Source of the DNA: Candidatus Poseidoniaceae archaeon
GTDB lineage: Archaea; Thermoplasmatota; Poseidoniia; Poseidoniales; Poseidoniaceae
Direction: 5' to 3'
DNA: 64,000 nucleotides
NCBI GenBank assembly: GCA_965662895.1
Contig: CBFIJH010000001.1
Span: 157,994-221,993 of the forward strand
The notes under the pieces were generated by a model. That model was not told the DNA's origin and ran no database searches. It saw only the letters and a program-made list of their open reading frames with translations. Positions 48,622 to 56,353 of this stretch are shown here, piece by piece. The position numbers and the translations under genes are program-made. The first letter of the stretch is position 1; each line of letters opens with the position of its first letter.

Positions 48622-50640
48622 TCATGCATCATTCTTTGCTGCGGCTTCAGCACGTGCTCGTGCATCCTCTTCTTCTGCAACACGAATGCCTTCCTCAAGA
48701 TCAACACGACTGGTGAGATAGGTTCCTGCGAGAATGACAATGGTAATCGTCAGAATTGCAACACGACTATCAAAGACTGAACTCGCAATACCGTACAGGA
48801 ACGTTCCAATCATGGCCGCAGACTTTCCAAGGAATCCAAAGAAGCCAAAGAACTCTGAAGTTCGTGTTTCCGGAACGAGTTGTGAGAACATCGAACGAGC
48901 CTGTGCTCCTGCACTGCCCATCGCAACACCAACAAACATGCCGAGAATAATCCATTGCAAGGAAACACTGATGTTCAGTGGATCCCAAACATTGTCTCGC
49001 ATGAACGTAGCCCAGCCATCAGCAGGACCACCTTGATCGACGACGGTTGGATGACGGTCACCGAGTTCGGCCTCTCCCCCGACAGGTCCACCGACAAACA
49101 GAATCGAGAATCGATGGTCGCTGGTGTTGTTAAACGCATTTGCAAGTGAAGCGGCATCGGTTTCACCGATTTGCAAGACCTCATCTTCTGTGGTTTCCTT
49201 CTGTCCTGCGAGATACGTCGACGCGAAGATGGCAATGGCGACCATGGCAATCATGGCGAGTACACCCAACCATCCAAGTTCCTTGCTTTGGATGAACATA
49301 ATCCCTCCACCGAGAATCGCAACGAAGGCAAGTATGACAACACAGACAATTAGCCCAGTGGCAATGGTGCTCTCACCCTTGTCCCCAACGCTGTAGTCAG
49401 GCTCAGGGAAGTATTCTTGGAAATTGTCTCGGAATGCTGCATCACCTTTTGCAGTTTCTCCAATCCATCCTTCGTATCCACGATCGTACAGCGTTGACAT
49501 GTTGTAACTGCTCGATGCCTCATCCCACGTGAAGGTGAAATCATAGCGTTCAGCATCATCCGGCGTTCCATCATTGTCTTCATCTGCCGTTGGGTCCAAC
49601 TCAAGCGGAGCGAAGCCTGCAGCGGTTACAGCGACGAAACAGTAGATGAGCAGCGCAAGCATCAGAGCAAATTTGGTTCCTTTCACGTCAGCAAGCTTTC
49701 CAAACACCAAGGTCATTGGAATCGCAACGACGTTTACAGTGAGCAGAAGAATAACGTTCATACTCGGGTTGAGTCGTAGAACAGATTCTCCAAACGCACT
49801 GGCCATACTTGCAATCGTGTTGACACCGTCATAAAACAGGAGATAAGCAAGAAGGAAGAATGCGAGCACCTTGAATCGCTTCACTTCTCGGAATGTTTGC
49901 AGAACCTGGCCGTACGCCATCTTCGTTGCTTTTCCAAATCCTTCCCATTCCATTTCAGATGGAATCTCAGGTTCCGGCGTCCACTTGAAAATGAGTGCTC
50001 CAAAGCCCCACCACCAAATCGAAGATGTTGCGAAAATAATCGCCATTTGGAAATTTGTATCCCATGATGTGCCCAACAGGACGATGAGGTGGAAAATGAG
50101 CAGCAAAGAACCGCCAATGAACCCATAAGCATAGCCCCATGTCGATACGTGATCTTGACACTTTCGGGGAGCAAGATAGGGCATGAAGGAATAGTAGATG
50201 ACGTTACCACCCGTAAACCCAATCGTACCGATGGTGTACATGAGCGCCAAGATGATGTATCCTTGTGAACCGAAATACGGTGCAGCTCCCATCAATGCTG
50301 TGAACAATATACCCGCCACAGTGTACCATTTGAGCAATTTTTTCTTAATCGGCATTTTGTCAGCGATGACACCCAAGGCAGGTGCAGTAATCACAACGAA
50401 AATCATCGAAAAGGTCAGCACCCAAGCATAGAAAGTGTCACCTGATTGCGTACCTGTTGCCGTGTTGTACAGTGCTGCCATCAATGCTGGAGCGATGACC
50501 GTCATAACGGTGAGCGCATAGGCTTGGTTTGCCCAGTCGAAGAAATACCAGCCTTTGAGAGCCTTTTTGTCATCATCGCTCATTGCCGACATGATTTCTT
50601 TGGTCGTGCGCAATTCTTCTGAAGTTGCCATCTCGCTCAT
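48622..50640 (-). CDS. MFS transporter of the UMF1/Atg22-like family.
   Basis: The FFDWANQAYA motif (DWANSA[FY] of UMF1 proteins), 12 TM helices and a large extracytoplasmic insertion. Start set at the ATG at 50640 (MSEMATSEE..). Confidence 0.6.
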   Translation of the reverse strand: MSEMATSEELRTTKEIMSAMSDDDKKALKGWYFFDWANQAYALTVMTVIAPALMAALYNTATGTQSGDTFYAWVLTFSMIFVVITAPALGVIADKMPIKKKLLKWYTVAGILFTALMGAAPYFGSQGYIILALMYTIGTIGFTGGNVIYYSFMPYLAPRKCQDHVSTWGYAYGFIGGSLLLIFHLIVLLGTSWDTNFQMAIIFATSSIWWWGFGALIFKWTPEPEIPSEMEWEGFGKATKMAYGQVLQTFREVKRFKVLAFFLLAYLLFYDGVNTIASMASAFGESVLRLNPSMNVILLLTVNVVAIPMTLVFGKLADVKGTKFALMLALLIYCFVAVTAAGFAPLELDPTADEDNDGTPDDAERYDFTFTWDEASSSYNMSTLYDRGYEGWIGETAKGDAAFRDNFQEYFPEPDYSVGDKGESTIATGLIVCVVILAFVAILGGGIMFIQSKELGWLGVLAMIAMVAIAIFASTYLAGQKETTEDEVLQIGETDAASLANAFNNTSDHRFSILFVGGPVGGEAELGDRHPTVVDQGGPADGWATFMRDNVWDPLNISVSLQWIILGMFVGVAMGSAGAQARSMFSQLVPETRTSEFFGFFGFLGKSAAMIGTFLYGIASSVFDSRVAILTITIVILAGTYLTSRVDLEEGIRVAEEEDARARAEAAAKNDA

Positions 50641-50761
50641 CGTATCACTATCTACTCCATGTTCAACTTGGTTTATCAAGACAACACCTGCATGGAATTG
50701 ACCACGATGCATTTGGAAGGATACGACAAATGTTCAAACGCATGGTTCTACAGGGTCGTGT

Positions 50762-51757
50762 ATGACCAAAGAATTTCCGAGGATTATGGTAACAGGCTGC
50801 ACTGGTTTCCTTGGACGTCAAGTCACGCAGGAGTTTCTTACCCGTGGCTACAAGGTCCGTGGCACAACACGAACGACCAAGGACAAACACCAATCCATTC
50901 TTGAAGATTTTTCGGCAGGAGATTCTTTCGAATTACGAACGCTTGATCTTACCTCGGATGCTGGATGGGAAGAAGCAATGGATGGGATTGATGCTGTTGT
51001 TCACACAGCATCTCCGTTCTCTGCCTATGAGCCAAAAGATGAGATGGAATTGATTGGACCAGCTCGAGATGGGACGCTGAGAGTTCTTGGTTTTGCGTAC
51101 GATTCTGGAATACGTAAGTTCGTGATTACTTCATCAACGGCAGCAATATCAGGTGCAACACCGACAACAAAAAACCGTACCTACACGGAAGGGGATTGGA
51201 CCGACCTGAGTAAGGATATCTCCGCTTATACAAAGAGCAAAACACTTGCAGAAAAAGCAGCACGAAAATTCGCTTCCGAACACCAAGATGTTGCGTTAAC
51301 GACCGTCAATCCAAACGTGATTTTTGGCCCACTTCACAGCGGTCAATCGGGAACATCGTTGCGAATCATTGAATCGATTGTCAAAAGCTCCTATCCGGGT
51401 TTTCCAAAAATTAGTTTTGCACCTGTTGATGTGCGTGATGTGGCATGGATGCATGCAGAGGCATTGGAGCGAAGCGAATTGGATGGTGAACGCTTGATGA
51501 TGGCAACCACACCGATCACGATGCCGCAAATAGCTCGACACTTGAAATCGAATGGCTACAAAGTTCGAACCCTTGCCCTGCCAAATATCATCGTCAAGGC
51601 CATGGCCATCTTCATCAAAGAGGCTCGATTGGTCACAATGGGGTTGGGGACAACCAATCATTACGATTGTTCAAACATCATCGAAAAAACAGGATGGAAG
51701 TCAAAAAGCCACGAGGAAATGATTGTCTCAGCGGCAAAATCGCTCGGGTTTCAATGA
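50762..51757 (+). CDS. NAD(P)-dependent epimerase/dehydratase-family reductase (extended SDR, cinnamoyl-CoA-reductase-like).
   Basis: IMVTGCTGFLGRQV Rossmann motif, the YxxxK region (YTKSKTLAEK) and 331 aa. Confidence 0.75.
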   Translation: MTKEFPRIMVTGCTGFLGRQVTQEFLTRGYKVRGTTRTTKDKHQSILEDFSAGDSFELRTLDLTSDAGWEEAMDGIDAVVHTASPFSAYEPKDEMELIGPARDGTLRVLGFAYDSGIRKFVITSSTAAISGATPTTKNRTYTEGDWTDLSKDISAYTKSKTLAEKAARKFASEHQDVALTTVNPNVIFGPLHSGQSGTSLRIIESIVKSSYPGFPKISFAPVDVRDVAWMHAEALERSELDGERLMMATTPITMPQIARHLKSNGYKVRTLALPNIIVKAMAIFIKEARLVTMGLGTTNHYDCSNIIEKTGWKSKSHEEMIVSAAKSLGFQ

Positions 51758-52146
51758 TCTCGAATGATGATGTATCGGCCGAGTGCTTCCTGCCACATGA
51801 TTTTCTGGCCAGCATCGATTGACATACCGCTGTCACTGTCTGGCATAGGAAGAATCATCATCGAATAGTCTCGGTCATTCATGGCGTGAACTTCGCTACC
51901 TTCGATGTGTGTGACCGTTGCGGTACCCTTCTCAATCATGGGTACGCTGATTGAATCTGTCACCGTACCAACGTGGGAGATTTTCTTGCCCGTAAAGATG
52001 CTCTCAAGAGCAAGTCGTGCTTTCGCTGAACCGTGCTTGCCTGGCTTTGATTTCGAGATGCTCAAAATCTTGTAGGCTTCATCATCAACAACACAAAATC
52101 GTCCAACTTTTAGCGTTCGAATCTCAACACGGTCGGTTCCTGGCAT
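51751..52146 (-). CDS. eif5a: Translation initiation factor 5A.
   Basis: Hypusine loop SKSKPGKHGSAKARL. Start set at the internal ATG at 52146 (MPGTDRVEIRTLKVG..). Confidence 0.85.
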   Translation of the reverse strand: MPGTDRVEIRTLKVGRFCVVDDEAYKILSISKSKPGKHGSAKARLALESIFTGKKISHVGTVTDSISVPMIEKGTATVTHIEGSEVHAMNDRDYSMMILPMPDSDSGMSIDAGQKIMWQEALGRYIIIRDH

Positions 52147-52199
52147 GAACCTACGCTGAGGTGGTGGCTTATGACAGTTCGGTTCACCGTATTCGGATT

Positions 52200-52943
52200 T
52201 CACAAATCCCTTACATCAAATCGATGTCCTGATTGCTCGAACGTGTGGTGAACAATCAGGTTGTGCAACTGATCAGCAACATCCTCAGGATTGGTCAGTT
52301 GTCCATCCCGATGATATCCCGCAAACGATTCAACCAATGGAAAATCTTCAATGTTTGAGGATCGAATTTCAATTTGCATATCGGTATCGACGATGCCTGG
52401 TGCGATGGCTACGGAGGTAATTCCATGCTTCGCACCTTCCTCTGCAAGGCATCTTGACCACATATCGAGCCCTGCTTTTGAGACGCAGTAGGCCGACCAC
52501 GAGTGAAGCGGGCGTAATGCTGCTCCGCTCGAAATGGTTGTCACACGGCAATGCTTCGAGGCCTTCATCTGCTCATAGATTCCTTGGGTCAAACGTTGTA
52601 CTCCGATGACGTTAACGTACAAACTACGTTCCCATTCGGAATTGTCCGCATCTTGAAGCGGTTGAATCGGTGAAATGATTCCCGCATTGTGGACAACACC
52701 GTCGATTGCACCAACTTGTTGCAAGGATTCAATTGCGGCATCAATCGAATCCGCATGACCCAAATCACAACCGACAAAGAACGATGATGGTGAAATCGAC
52801 TGAACCTCCTCGCATGCAAGCTTCAGAAGAGGTGAGGAACGGGCAAGCAAAATGACCTGAATCCCTTCTTCAGCCAATCGCTTTGCAATCGCTCGTCCAA
52901 TACCCTTTGAAGCACCGGTTACAAGGTAGGTTCTGTTGCCCAT
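52200..52943 (-). CDS. Short-chain dehydrogenase/reductase (classical SDR).
   Basis: YLVTGASKGIGRAIA, the catalytic YCVSKAG and NAG (NAGIISP). Confidence 0.8.
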   Translation of the reverse strand: MGNRTYLVTGASKGIGRAIAKRLAEEGIQVILLARSSPLLKLACEEVQSISPSSFFVGCDLGHADSIDAAIESLQQVGAIDGVVHNAGIISPIQPLQDADNSEWERSLYVNVIGVQRLTQGIYEQMKASKHCRVTTISSGAALRPLHSWSAYCVSKAGLDMWSRCLAEEGAKHGITSVAIAPGIVDTDMQIEIRSSNIEDFPLVESFAGYHRDGQLTNPEDVADQLHNLIVHHTFEQSGHRFDVRDL

Positions 52944-53012
52944 AAATCCAAGAGAGCAAGACGCCTAATCAGTATTGTTGAAAGCACTTTAGAAACAGGA
53001 GTATATTTACCA

Positions 53013-55310
53013 ATGCTCGAAGTTTCCTCTATGTTCGATTTACCTGAACATCTTGCGGAAAGATGTCGTCAGGCCAACACGATTGAACAGATTCTAAGAG
53101 ATGGCCCAATCATCGTTTGGTTGAAGTCGTCCCTTCGAACACACGAAAACCCTGCACTCGATGCTGGTCGACTTCTTGCCAATCAATACAATCTTCCTCT
53201 CCTTGTCTACCAAGCTGTCGATGAACGCTATCCGCATGCGAATGCCCGTCACCACAATATTCTCTTCGATGCAGCCATCGATCTCTCCTCTGGTTGCCAA
53301 AAGTTGGGCATCGATTACGCACTTCACATAGCTCGGAAAGGTCATCGCCCCCCAGTTATGAAAGCGTTTGCAAAAACTGCAAGTGCAATCGTGACGGATC
53401 TGTTTCCTTTGCCCCCATGGAAAGATTGGGTTGATAAAATTGCATCCATAGCAACGTGTCCAGTGATTGAAATCGATTGCCATTGTGTTGTACCATTGCC
53501 AGTATTTGGAAAATCAATGGACCGACCATTCAGATATCGTGATGCAACAAAAAAGTTGAGAAAGCGTCGAGTTGGTCAACCGTGGCCGTCACTCGACCTC
53601 GAGAAACCACTACGGTGGAACGGCCCTTTACCGTTTGAACAGGTCAACATCAGCGAATTGACCTCAATGGAACACCGGTTGGCATTGTTGCAACAGTGCG
53701 ATATTGACATGTCTGTCCATCCGGTTTGGGACCAGCGAGGAGGTGAACGGGCTGCACTTGTGCGATGGCAGGAGTTCCTTGCAAAAGGAATCTCAGGATA
53801 CGCACGTCGTAGGAACAATGCTGCGGACGCACAAGGAGTCTCTCGTCTCTCCATGGCCATCCATTATGGGATGATTTCAGTCATGAAAATCGTTCGAGAG
53901 GCGCACGAAGTCGGTACGAAAAGCGCGGAAAAGTTTCTCGATGAATTGCTCATTTTTCGAGAACATGCGTGGCACCATGTTTACGCGAGAGATGAACCAT
54001 ATGGTTCTCACAATTTACCGAATTGGGCCCTCGAATCGTGGCAAGATACTGCAGATGACGTCCGAACCACGCTCCTCGAAAAAGACGACTTTGAACTCGG
54101 AGCGTCCCCAAACAAATTGTGGAATTTGTGTCAAACCTCATTGTATCGTCATGGTGAATTGCACAACAATCTTCGTATGACGTGGGGGAAGGCAACACCG
54201 CACTGGACCACCTCCCTTGAAGCATCTTTGAAAATGGGTCAGCACTTGAACGACAGATTCGCACTTGATGGAAGAGATCCGTCTTCCATTGCTGGCATTC
54301 ATTGGTGTCACGGTTTGTTTGATCGGCCCTTTTTACCGCCCTTACCTGTCATGGGCGTTGTTCGGAAACGTGAACTAGCAACCCACCAGTCACGACTTGA
54401 CATGGATGCCTACGAACGACATGTCATGCGAACTGCGTACAATCAACAACGACCCTTTGTCATCGTAGGTGCTGGATATGCTGGCGCACGCTCTGCTCAA
54501 ATTCTGAGCAATTATGGATACGATGTGCTCGTTCTCGACAAAGGGACAATTCCTGGAGGTCGCTCATCAACAAAACGACGTGAAGAAGGACTCTACAATC
54601 ACGGATCGGATGTTCTTGGCGATGATGAAAACCTGTTCGCCGATGCTGCGATTAACACGATGCTCGAAGGCATCGATGTTTGCTGCGAGACAACAATCAC
54701 CTCCATCGAATCGCATCAGGACTGTGTTGTTCTTGAAGACGAGAGAGGATTCACGTGGGAAGCTGAAGCTGTGATTCTTACATGTCCAATACCGCAATTG
54801 CAACCAATTCTAGCAAACACCGTTCCACAAGAATGGAACGACCATCCTTACATTTCAAATTGGACACTTATTTGCACGGGGAAAGAACACGTTCCTGAAC
54901 AAATCATCAACTATGCAAGTGATTCTATAGAAGAAATCAGGAAGGGAGTACAAAAACCGGATTCGAATGTTCTGATCGTTCATATGACCAACGAATGGAG
55001 CAAGAGACATCTCGAACGTTCTAGAGACGAGGTTGTGGAATTGATTTTGAACGAACTCCAACCCATCCAATCGGATTGGTTTGAAAACGCTGGATTTCAC
55101 GCTCATCGCTGGCGCTATTCACGACCGCTTACTCAGCCTGAGCGTATCCATCACGAACGAATCACATTTGCGGGAGATGCTTGGGCAGAACCCTTGGGAA
55201 CCGTTGAGGGTGCGCTAAATTCCGCAGAATTCGCTGCTCTCGAATTGGTATGGAAAATCAATTATGCTCAGAATCGTCCATCAATATCAATGCAAACAAC
55301 GTTGTTTTAG
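53013..55310 (+). CDS. Class II CPD photolyase fused to a C-terminal FAD/NAD(P)-binding oxidoreductase (renalase/amine-oxidase-like) domain.
   Basis: The N-terminal ~450 aa show the photolyase alpha/beta domain (IVWLKSSLRTHENPALD) and the class II signature LRMTWGKATPHWT (compare RMYWAKKILEW). The C-terminal ~300 aa begin with the dinucleotide fold PFVIVGAGYAGARSA and end HRWRYSRP...FAGDAW. It is a single uninterrupted frame of 765 aa. The true start may be the ATG at 53031, which sits about 25 nt after a TATATTTA box. Confidence 0.7.
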   Translation: MLEVSSMFDLPEHLAERCRQANTIEQILRDGPIIVWLKSSLRTHENPALDAGRLLANQYNLPLLVYQAVDERYPHANARHHNILFDAAIDLSSGCQKLGIDYALHIARKGHRPPVMKAFAKTASAIVTDLFPLPPWKDWVDKIASIATCPVIEIDCHCVVPLPVFGKSMDRPFRYRDATKKLRKRRVGQPWPSLDLEKPLRWNGPLPFEQVNISELTSMEHRLALLQQCDIDMSVHPVWDQRGGERAALVRWQEFLAKGISGYARRRNNAADAQGVSRLSMAIHYGMISVMKIVREAHEVGTKSAEKFLDELLIFREHAWHHVYARDEPYGSHNLPNWALESWQDTADDVRTTLLEKDDFELGASPNKLWNLCQTSLYRHGELHNNLRMTWGKATPHWTTSLEASLKMGQHLNDRFALDGRDPSSIAGIHWCHGLFDRPFLPPLPVMGVVRKRELATHQSRLDMDAYERHVMRTAYNQQRPFVIVGAGYAGARSAQILSNYGYDVLVLDKGTIPGGRSSTKRREEGLYNHGSDVLGDDENLFADAAINTMLEGIDVCCETTITSIESHQDCVVLEDERGFTWEAEAVILTCPIPQLQPILANTVPQEWNDHPYISNWTLICTGKEHVPEQIINYASDSIEEIRKGVQKPDSNVLIVHMTNEWSKRHLERSRDEVVELILNELQPIQSDWFENAGFHAHRWRYSRPLTQPERIHHERITFAGDAWAEPLGTVEGALNSAEFAALELVWKINYAQNRPSISMQTTLF

Positions 55311-56353
55311 AATGGATTTTTCCGATACACATCCCAAGGCTTGCTGCCACGCTTACGAAACATCGAAGTTCGCATGGATTTGAGAATGGTCCAGGCAAAT
55401 TTGAACGTACGTTTGATCGATTGGATGGGATGAAGCATGTACCAAAGAGGATTTTTCCATTCTCGTAGAGGATACCTCAGTTGACGAAGCATACCCGCAG
55501 GAATCTCTTCACTGACACCGTATTTCATTGGTCTTCGATTCTTTGGCATAAAGTACGTTCCAAACAATTGATCCCACACAGGAAGAAAAGTCGAGTAATT
55601 TGTCCATATGGCATCTCGCTCGTTTGTATGATGCCAGTGATGGAATTCAGGAGTAATGATGAGTCGATGCAACCACTTCAAGCGCCATCGAACATTGGCA
55701 TGGAGGAACAGTCCAAGAATCAGTTGTGCAGCAGCCAGCGCACCAGTTAATTCAAAGGAAAATCCTGCTGCTACCAAAAAGACAAATGCTGGTGCAAGAA
55801 TGGTTCCGTCCAATGGATGGCCACGGAATCCACTGGCCCAGTCCAAATGCTCAGTTGAGTGGTGAATGGCATGGAACTTCCAAAGGACCGGAATTTCATG
55901 ATAAAATCGATGCGTCCAGTACACGAGCATATCGAAGAGGAGAATGCCCAGTAGAGGCATGTACTGTTCAGGAATTTGCGCAACATACGGTCGAAGAAGA
56001 AGGCCTGGAATCCATGCCAAGCTGAGAACACCAACCACGATGGCAACAATTCCAGTAAGCAAACCAAGCAATGGTGAAGCCAAAGCGTAGCCTACATCGG
56101 TATCGAGATGAGGTCGTCGAATTTTTTGTCCTTTGTGGCGAGGGAACATCTTTTCGAACGGTACAACAAGGACAAAAAGCAACAACACAACGAAGATCCC
56201 TTCAACGGAGATGTATAATGCAACAGCGATTAAGGCGAGGGTAAGCAGTCGAAGAATCATCGAGACAAGGCGGGTTTTGAAACCAACTGTCTCTTCCATG
56301 GATGATTCATAGAATGAGCGATTAATAGAGATGTTTGGTTCATGAATCATCAC
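55307..56353 (-). CDS. Fatty-acid hydroxylase superfamily membrane protein (sterol desaturase/C-4 methyl oxidase-like).
   Basis: Histidine boxes HRFYHE, HAIHHS and HHWHH, with N-terminal TM helices. Confidence 0.65.
   Translation of the reverse strand: MMIHEPNISINRSFYESSMEETVGFKTRLVSMILRLLTLALIAVALYISVEGIFVVLLLFVLVVPFEKMFPRHKGQKIRRPHLDTDVGYALASPLLGLLTGIVAIVVGVLSLAWIPGLLLRPYVAQIPEQYMPLLGILLFDMLVYWTHRFYHEIPVLWKFHAIHHSTEHLDWASGFRGHPLDGTILAPAFVFLVAAGFSFELTGALAAAQLILGLFLHANVRWRLKWLHRLIITPEFHHWHHTNERDAIWTNYSTFLPVWDQLFGTYFMPKNRRPMKYGVSEEIPAGMLRQLRYPLREWKNPLWYMLHPIQSIKRTFKFAWTILKSMRTSMFRKRGSKPWDVYRKNPF

Follow-up and report, generated by a model that had tools for sequence, protein, structure and literature searches.

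A class II photolyase joined to a renalase-like FAD domain and a PIP-like C-terminal tail in a Poseidoniaceae archaeon: architecture, distribution and possible function

The window analysed here is a stretch of 64,000 nucleotides (nt) from a Candidatus Poseidoniaceae archaeon (assembly GCA_965662895.1, contig CBFIJH010000001.1, positions 157,994 to 221,993 of the forward strand). The gene in question is the open reading frame (ORF) 53013..55310 (+) of this window, which encodes 765 amino acids (aa) with zero internal stops and whose numbering is used throughout. Its product joins in one polypeptide a class II photolyase module, a flavin adenine dinucleotide (FAD) domain of the renalase type and a short tail ending in QTTLF-COOH. 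The reading favored here, with a probability of roughly 0.55, is that this three-part protein is a clamp-docked class II photolyase carrying a renalase-type FAD domain. An earlier reading of the sequence alone (the sequence-only reading) had proposed that a photolyase continues in frame into a flavoenzyme domain of the dinucleotide-binding kind; this was borne out by the uninterrupted ORF, the Pfam and TIGR00591 matches and the full-length homologues. The three motifs that it had quoted, LRMTWGKATPHWT (aa 387-399), GAGYAGARS (aa 486-494) and HRWRYSRP (aa 698-705), are all present. Each part comes from a known family, namely class II photolyases, renalases (COG3380) and tails with a box typical of PCNA-interacting proteins (PIP box), and the fusion is real and widespread, not exotic.

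Reading frame and parts of the fusion protein

Since close relatives carry AAC at the position matching 53013 and have in common ATGTTCGA 18 nt downstream, at 53031, the real start of the gene is almost certainly ATG 53031 (M7), which gives a protein of 759 aa. The junction region (54350-54450) encodes ...FLPPLPVMGVVRKRELATHQSRLDMDAYERHVMRTAYNQQRPFVIVGAGYAG; the linker proper (aa 473-481) is flanked in the model by a helix at aa 464-471 and a strand at aa 482-485. A frameshift or a stop codon lost by assembly error in this region had been named in the sequence-only reading as a possible source of the fusion. The frame reads straight through, and the region aligns without gaps to more than 85 homologue clusters (757-793 aa, 46-76% identity, 99-100% query coverage), with conserved residues flanking the junction on both sides. 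So, an assembly frameshift or lost stop is excluded, and the merging of two adjacent genes by an assembly or sequencing error can be dismissed as next to impossible, as these full-length clusters are joined by a 100% identical homologue on an independent contig and by more than 120 diverse representatives matched across the junction, with named genomes from two domains of life.

Concerning the photolyase module, the Pfam family DNA_photolyase matched aa 34-174, and TIGR00591, the NCBIfam model of class II photolyases, covered aa 17-470 over nearly its whole length (model positions 7-452 of 453). The best solved relatives were the class II cyclobutane-pyrimidine-dimer (CPD) photolyase of Methanosarcina mazei (MmCPDII; phmmer E 1e-46, aa 29-452) and then the rice class II enzyme. 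When the full-length model was compared to the PDB with Foldseek, ranks 1-44 were all class II photolyases, either MmCPDII or rice, with template-modelling scores relative to the target (TMt) of 0.79-0.85. Residue equivalences were read from the M. mazei alignment, using the published MmCPDII numbering. The tryptophan triad W381/W360/W388 corresponds to W391/W370/W398 of the fusion, and N403, located at flavin N5, corresponds to N413. Three residues of the CPD pocket, M379, E301 and W421, are kept as M389, E311 and W431. The triad and N413 are invariant among 43 fusions; among 50 diverse fusions, T390, W391 and W398 are invariant while W370 and N413 are conserved in at least 90%. The canonical class II signature RMYW reads RMTW in the fused family, where the Thr (T390) is invariant. 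Judged from these residues, the catalytic apparatus of a divergent class II photolyase looks intact. The C-terminal helix of the module (…RKRELATHQSRLDMDAYERHV) ends at about aa 472, and the M. mazei alignment reaches only that helix. It is presumably the equivalent of …KIRYMS… in MmCPDII.

Beyond the junction, Pfam recognizes NAD_binding_8 (aa 484-535) and Amino_oxidase (aa 553-742). The motifs of the domain are GxGxxG (486-491), D509-K510, G515-G516-R517, H530-G531, T590/P592/P594/Q595 and, in the C-terminal part, H698-R699-W700-R701-Y702 and G721-D722. In a sequence search of the PDB, the only strong matches were the Pseudomonas renalases 3KKJ and 4ZCC, over two stretches, with the renalase sequence AHRWLYARP aligned to AHRWRYSRP of the fusion. 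A model of aa 474-765, with a predicted local distance difference test score (pLDDT) of 89.9, gave renalases, both bacterial and human, at all of the Foldseek ranks 1-9 (E 1e-20 to 1e-14; TM-score relative to the query, TMq, 0.70-0.78). They were followed by L-amino-acid oxidase, NicA2, MAO and others, with TMt <=0.50. By this search, the domain is of the short renalase / COG3380 type, the long flavoproteins of the amine-oxidase or desaturase type ranking lower. Among free-standing proteins, the closest are bacterial ones of ~330 aa, designated 'renalase' or 'predicted NAD/FAD-dependent oxidoreductase', which are 23-28% identical. The renalase fold, a two-domain fold of the p-hydroxybenzoate-hydroxylase type (~330 aa), and its motifs exclude the possibility, considered in the sequence-only reading, of a common photolyase C-terminal extension without a dinucleotide-binding fold.

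The residues G486/G488/G491, D509, G515-G516-R517, R699-W700-R701 and G721-D722 are invariant among the fusions, and the FAD motifs and HRWRY remain so across fusions that are only 47-76% identical; H657 is conserved in ~50% of them. The ratio of nonsynonymous to synonymous divergence (dN/dS) of the C-terminal half versus close relatives was ~0.07-0.12, an approximate value because dS is saturated, the photolyase half not being computable for that reason. The invariant motifs and a dN/dS of ~0.1 indicate that the flavin domain is under purifying selection. The predicted TM-score (pTM) of the full-length model was 0.86 for 765 aa, though the larger domain represents 61% of the chain. Considering this value together with the short linker, the mutual orientation of the domains is taken as fixed, and the photolyase and flavin domains are predicted to be rigidly packed against each other.

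The third part of the protein is its tail, with the C-terminal peptide NRPSISMQTTLF. It is disordered in the model (pLDDT <50 at aa 757-765), as is usual for PIP tails. Its residues Q761 and L764 are invariant in the fusion homologues, and every archaeal group, including a truncated one described below, runs ~15 residues past the end of the renalase fold. In the clade of the window the tail ends in QTTLF, QQTLF or QTQLF-COOH. In a more distant archaeal clade it ends in QSNLMDW, QTDLSAWGA, QTTLSNW or QASIFDW, in agreement with the archaeal PIP-box consensus QxxLxxF/W (PMC7776575). Among the bacterial fusions, mainly from Planctomycetota, ends of the types QLSLF-, QLGLF-, QLELF- and QMRLF- occur (loci L069, L072, L081, L082 and L084; representatives P0245, P0258, P0266, P0282 and others), with planctomycete proteins finishing in QLSLFT, QLGLFS, QLELFS or QLLLFESS. 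The planctomycete tails match QL[SD]LF, the published consensus of the bacterial beta-clamp motif.

These patterns are enriched at the C-terminus. Q-x-x-[LIMV]-aromatic occurs within the last 12 aa of 78 of the 86 archaeal fusions; among the controls, its frequency is 1.3% for internal windows and 7.9% for shuffled tails. 'Q..LF' occurs within the last 11 aa of 17 of 121 diverse, mostly bacterial representatives, versus 0.03% of internal windows. An 'LF' tail is present in 20/49 representatives extended past the renalase-like domain, versus 1/46 of those without extension, and the tail patterns were found in none of 102 free-standing renalase-like proteins.

A motif scan of the window together with the Poseidoniales loci, 569 ORFs in all, returned, besides the fusion, only three proteins, one of them unannotated. 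The other two were the large subunit of RFC (L002 1806-3320; NF003229, E 3e-70), which ends in GQMKLF-COOH, and FEN-1 (L063 702-1985; TIGR03674, E 5e-93), which ends in GGQTSLFSF-COOH and whose gene was found in a locus of the more distant archaeal fusion relatives. Both are textbook PIP-box proteins (PMC7776575). So, it can be said that this lineage uses a short Q-x-x-L-F-COOH form in addition to the canonical PIP form, and the QTTLF-COOH of the window mirrors the tail of the large RFC subunit of the same order, in both cases a short motif at the extreme C-terminus. An unfused relative of 503 aa (P0363) has QATLFDDND immediately after the photolyase, which indicates that the tail goes with the DNA-repair function. 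From these sequence comparisons we infer that QTTLF-COOH would dock the fusion on the archaeal sliding clamp PCNA. A literature search, in which subscription journals were poorly covered, brought up no photolyase described as carrying a PIP box or a clamp-binding motif. As a separate observation, a Poseidoniaceae protein of 416 aa that is matched by neither Pfam nor NCBIfam (L005 11537-12787 / L027 9537-10787) also ends PIP-like (...QKSMEWAREF), and sits among radical-SAM, helicase and integrase-like genes.

Distribution and history of the fusion

An exhaustive full-length search of protein clusters at 50% identity, through their 1.84 billion representatives, gave 562 matches at E <=1e-30. Of the top 150, more than 120 have 750-900 aa and 34-45% identity and are matched across the junction (query ~9-535 plus a second stretch); among the family members that carry names are Planctomyces, Pirellula, Myxococcota and Deltaproteobacteria. 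The species-representative genomes of GTDB contain at least 561 loci. Full-length fusions occur among archaea in Poseidoniaceae and Thalassarchaeaceae. Among bacteria they occur in Planctomycetota (Pirellulaceae, Planctomycetaceae, Fuerstiella, Aureliella), Myxococcota, Acidobacteriota, Gemmatimonadota (Gemmatimonas) and in Cognaticolwellia and Geminicoccaceae, Proteobacteria being thus represented. The best species-level genome match to the fusion is 76% identical (L011), and no fused copy was found in a plasmid collection. These searches show that the fusion recurs. It is a large multi-phylum family and no local peculiarity, and the framing in terms of bacterial phr operons does not suit a window that is archaeal, contains an aIF5A gene and has its best relatives in Candidatus Poseidoniaceae; the homologues with names come from this family or from Poseidoniales, the Marine Group II archaea. 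Apart from this, a protein of 4593 aa from the red alga Porphyridium aerugineum (P0272, MMETSP transcriptome) is matched by the photolyase in 10 separate stretches, and is either a giant multi-photolyase protein or an oddity of translation or assembly.

Trees of the two halves, suggested in the sequence-only reading, recovered the same clades: the archaea form one clade of two subclades, with the bacteria outside. These are rough neighbour-joining trees with no support values, in which four short unfused photolyases among the bacterial fusions are unreliably placed. The pairwise distances in the two halves correlate with r = 0.92. The agreement of the clades and this correlation fit a single fusion event, inherited afterwards as a unit. 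A separation of the bacterial and archaeal versions by an old transfer would also fit, in agreement with the patchwork history of horizontal transfer reported for Poseidoniales photolyases (PMC6461757).

The flavin domain differs in its state of preservation between the groups. The bacterial fusions have a nearly complete set of renalase motifs, including DHGAQxFTxR, RY..GM and WxADNxxKG, which are kept at >=85% in the free-standing members of the renalase family. To judge from the alignments, the archaeal domain keeps the renalase fold and the FAD site with a remodelled substrate region, and in the window's clade its substrate is therefore probably unlike that of canonical renalases. Nested in the window's own clade there is, moreover, a decayed sister group of Poseidoniaceae proteins of ~612-660 aa (L005 and L027-L050, e.g. 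L027 5998-7845; P0089-P0120). Their photolyase is still 60% identical, and they retain the junction as well as the first beta-alpha unit, the last helix and the Q..L tail, but ~150 aa of the flavin domain are gone, GGR and GD among them. There are unfused relatives as well.

Possible function of the fusion and its alternatives

In the favored reading, the photolyase module would bind its own FAD and reverse ultraviolet (UV)-induced cyclobutane-pyrimidine dimers with blue or near-UV light. The disordered QTTLF-COOH tail would dock the protein on PCNA, many bacterial members carrying a beta-clamp motif instead. Photolyase plus tail would constitute the core function, that is, photoreactivation delivered at clamp-loaded DNA. 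The second flavin would carry out a first half-reaction of the renalase type, the transfer of a hydride from a reduced substrate similar to a pyridine nucleotide to FAD. As for the electron acceptor, O2, as in free renalases, is proposed tentatively; the domain would then clear aberrant 1,2-/1,6-NAD(P)H isomers that light-driven chemistry can form, and the protein would combine two independent activities against photodamage. The alternative acceptor, the flavin/tryptophan chain of the photolyase itself, is a more doubtful candidate. Renalases oxidise 1,2-/1,6-NAD(P)H to NAD(P)+ with O2, isomers of NAD(P)H that arise by non-specific, including photochemical, reduction and inhibit dehydrogenases with nanomolar to micromolar inhibition constants (PMC7660482; PMC8669784).

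Several observations weigh against this reading. Concerning the photolyase, the TIGR00591 score (240 bits) is below the curated cutoff of 550, which indicates a divergent class II subfamily. The CPD-pocket residue W305 of MmCPDII corresponds to F315, a Phe that does not vary within the clade of the window while the bacterial fusions retain the Trp, and Y345 corresponds in that clade to L355. Concerning the flavin domain, the window's clade and the distant archaeal clade both lack RY..GM, WxADNxxKG and DHGAQxFTxR, the last together with its helical hairpin, and canonical renalase activity is therefore doubtful in the former. The decay of the domain in the sister lineage means that its function is dispensable in some lineages. 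Stand-alone renalase-like genes in five distinct genomic contexts (7 loci) have zero photolyase neighbours, so that a general neighbourhood link between renalases and photolyases was rejected. An oxidase producing H2O2 while held on DNA seems harmful, which argues against O2 as the acceptor. Concerning the tail, QTTLF-COOH does not match the canonical Q-x-x-[LIM]-x-x-[FYW]-[FYW], as the aromatic pair is absent, and about half of the bacterial family members lack the tail.

The best surviving alternative, although an unlikely one, is that the second flavin domain is a built-in reductase, which would accept hydride from NAD(P)H (or from one of its isomers) and pass single electrons to the photolyase, either through the tryptophan chain or directly. 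The very short linker and the pTM of 0.86 imply a fixed domain arrangement; the triad is strictly conserved and accompanied by the invariant, subfamily-specific T390. The tethering to DNA through the clamp tail, which makes an H2O2-releasing oxidase implausible, also speaks for a reductase, as do the co-evolution of the two halves and the archaeal loss of renalase substrate motifs with the FAD motifs kept, which fits a changed electron path. On the other hand, in the truncated lineage the flavin domain no longer works but the 60%-identical photolyase persists and hence can do without it, and the unfused relatives point in the same direction. To our knowledge, there is no precedent for a dedicated photolyase reductase. 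If the proposal were true, the catalytic FAD would be kept as FADH- in the oxic and bright surface ocean, with no need of photoactivation.

A broader and rather speculative version, to which still less weight is given, sees in the fusion a photorepair machine with two flavins, tethered to PCNA or, in bacteria, to the beta-clamp, in which the renalase-derived flavin domain serves the DNA-bound enzyme and not the free cofactor pool. The domain might then be a built-in reductase that uses NAD(P)H to return the photolyase flavin to its active state in the dark. It might alternatively provide a second direct-reversal activity, re-aromatising saturated (dihydro-) pyrimidine lesions by a renalase-like abstraction of hydride.

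Less probable again is that the archaeal C-terminal domain is non-enzymatic, either an FAD-binding or empty spacer that presents the tail or a second chromophore or antenna, with the enzymatic renalase function left only in the bacterial family members. Flavin antennae occur in some photolyases. It seems reasonable to read in this sense the stepwise loss of substrate motifs, from the bacterial fusions to both archaeal clades and to the truncated lineage, with the tail kept throughout, as well as the truncated type itself, which retains only the first beta-alpha unit, the last helix and the tail. However, the FAD motifs and R699-W700-R701 are conserved at 47-76% identity with a dN/dS of ~0.1, a constraint that exceeds the needs of a spacer, and the domain is modelled with confidence (pLDDT ~90).

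Gene neighbourhood, upstream element and known systems

The features of the fusion gene and of its surroundings are summarized in Table 1. The sequence-only reading had placed the fusion in a functional neighbourhood of two short-chain dehydrogenases/reductases (SDR), one of them of the extended or epimerase type, and a fatty-acid hydroxylase, and had suggested redox or photoprotective lipid chemistry coupled to DNA repair. The three neighbours and their coordinates were confirmed; the aIF5A gene between the two SDR genes and the orientations of the genes had been missed, and the functional neighbourhood itself did not hold.

Table 1. Coordinates in the window of the fusion gene, its parts, the upstream element and the neighbouring genes
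Feature	Position	Strand	Description	Basis
Extended SDR	50762-51757	+		Pfam
Archaeal aIF5A	51751-52203	-	between the two SDR genes	NF003076, E 2e-33
Classical SDR	52200-52943	-	divergent from the fusion gene
Conserved upstream motif AAACAGGAGTATATTTACC	52993..53011	+	BRE/TATA-like; GTATAT begins 30 nt before ATG 53031
Whole fusion gene	53031..55310	+	759 aa from the probable start M7 of the mechanical ORF, stop codon included	full-length homologues
Class II CPD photolyase module	53031..54428	+	aa 7-472: N-terminal alpha/beta domain and helical FAD domain
LRMTWGKATPHWT motif	54171..54209	+	aa 387-399; W391 and W398, proximal and distal Trp of the triad; also M389 and T390
Junction, last photolyase helix to first Rossmann strand	54429..54455	+	aa 473-481, ~9 residues
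Renalase-like FAD domain	54456..55262	+	aa 482-750, roughly 270 aa	sequence and fold matches, invariant motifs
Flexible C-terminal tail	55263..55307	+	aa 751-765; ends in PIP-like QTTLF-COOH
QTTLF-COOH motif	55293-55307	+	aa 761-765
Fatty-acid hydroxylase	55307-56353	-	convergent with the fusion gene, 348 aa, GTG start

The neighbour genes were clustered across 58 loci. The order MFS (major facilitator superfamily) transporter / epimerase / aIF5A / SDR / fusion / hydroxylase / acyl-CoA-dehydrogenase is common to the 74%-identical relative L001 and to 8 of the 16 close loci, and is kept only around relatives of ~59-76% identity. It is absent around the fusions of 56% (L002/L003), 49% (L004) and 35-39% identity, and around the bacterial fusions. 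An SDR/lipid clustering is missing from the 42 other loci, save for two stray SDRs (L058 and L069). The conservation of the neighbourhood only in the close clade thus corresponds to local synteny and not to a functional cluster.

It is therefore very improbable that the flavoprotein, the SDRs and the hydroxylase form one light-induced block of lipid or redox photoprotection at 50.7-56.4 kb. The correct identification of the neighbours, the divergent classical SDR that adjoins the fusion in 7 close relatives, the SDRs of L058 and L069 and the CrtI-like carotenoid desaturase found near the fusion in four loci (L029, L032, L041 and L083) could be cited in its favor. Nevertheless, the block is conserved in one close clade only, being absent from L002-L004, the distant archaea and the bacteria; its genes lie on both strands, with aIF5A in between and the hydroxylase convergent with the fusion; and the flavin domain is of the renalase type and not of the desaturase type. 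SDRs are among the commonest protein families, so two of 42 other loci give no signal. The proposed functional cluster was rejected on these grounds.

The only families that recur near the fusion across lineages are other photolyase-family genes, in 13 of the 58 loci, both archaeal and bacterial. They are of the DPRP / FeS-BCP type (PF04244) in 7 loci, mostly adjacent to the fusion, and of the PF00875+PF03441 photolyase/cryptochrome type in 6. A second photolyase gene adjoins the fusion in L054, L063, L071, L072, L073 and L084, lies at +4 in L053, and is found beside or near it in L037, L038, L040, L049, L076 and L090. This recurrence indicates that the context points to UV repair and photoprotection rather than to lipid chemistry.

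Some details of the neighbouring genes can be added. The mechanical ORF of aIF5A has a GTG start and overlaps both neighbours by a few bases. The hydroxylase ORF overlaps the stop codon of the fusion by 4 nt; as the hydroxylase of a relative has 308 aa, the one in the window probably starts at a later codon. Among named proteins it is matched best, though weakly, by the ornithine-lipid hydroxylase OlsE (106 bits vs a cutoff of 475). The ATG22-like MFS transporter at 48622-50712 (-) is a single ORF of 696 aa in the window, with an acidic insert of ~200 aa, while in the relative L001 (3597-5677) it is called as two genes of 292 and 401 aa, a difference due either to a frameshift in one assembly or to a true split.

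Upstream of the fusion gene, the motif AAACAGGAGTATATTTACC resembles a B recognition element (BRE) followed by a TATA box. Relative to the start codon, GTATAT begins at -30 in the close clade, while in the truncated clade it begins at -33/-34; the distance of 30 nt implies that the mRNA is leaderless or nearly so. With up to 2 mismatches permitted, a 14-mer of the motif still has a single occurrence in the window. In 10 loci the 12-mer ACAGGAGTATAT is present exactly once, each time directly before the fusion gene, whether or not the neighbours differ, and AAACAGGAGTATAT(TTACC) was found upstream of the fusion in L004, L012-L015, L017, L018, L022, L025 and L070. Being unique in the window and gene-specific across loci, the motif was rejected as a general promoter consensus. 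From its sequence and position it would be an archaeal BRE/TATA promoter element of this gene. Its gene-specific conservation in spite of saturated synonymous divergence hints at regulation, and it may double as the site of a regulator.

With respect to significance, there is debate on how photolyases locate their lesions and remain reduced in vivo. If the favored reading is true, clamp tails matched to the domain of life (a PIP box in archaea and QLxLF in bacteria) would bring photoreactivation to clamp-loaded DNA. The fusion also bears on where renalase substrates come from physiologically and on why cells keep renalase: a long-conserved multi-phylum fusion with a UV-repair enzyme ties renalase-type flavoenzymes to light stress or DNA. 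In the sunlit ocean, the uncultured Poseidoniales are more abundant than any other archaea. The fusion gene is probably their main photolyase, and its properties bear on their tolerance of surface UV. The series that goes from the intact bacterial domain to the remodelled archaeal one and to the decayed one with the tail kept is natural material for comparison.

Existing annotations designate these proteins as 'photolyase PhrII' or 'predicted NAD/FAD-dependent oxidoreductase/deoxyribodipyrimidine photolyase'. A literature search with partial journal coverage, so that an earlier description is possible, returned no description of, or experiment on, the fusion, the tail or the decay series. The only trace of the architecture was a figure legend that names 'PHR2' and 'COG3380' domains on a photolyase tree, without discussing them (bioRxiv 10.1101/2022.06.29.498140).

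Compared to the solved class II photolyases MmCPDII (PDB 2XRY/4CDN) and rice 3UMV, the photolyase module is only ~26-35% identical, and no solved photolyase has a second flavoenzyme domain or a tail of the clamp-binding type, while the fusion has both. With renalases (3KKJ, 4ZCC, 4ZCD, 5KRQ and human 3QJ4) the fusion has in common GxGxxG, DKG...GGR, HG, TxPxPQ, HRW.Y and GD; however, its domain is 21-30% identical to them, ~40 aa shorter, and fused instead of free-standing. A parallel in organization, cited in the same preprint, is the Nudix hydrolase-photolyase operon of Prochlorococcus MED4, which, like the fusion if its two activities are independent, would couple photorepair to the cleaning of a nucleotide or cofactor pool under UV or light stress (bioRxiv 10.1101/2022.06.29.498140). 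In that operon, the partners are separate proteins and the second one belongs to another family, whereas in the fusion both functions would reside in a single polypeptide.

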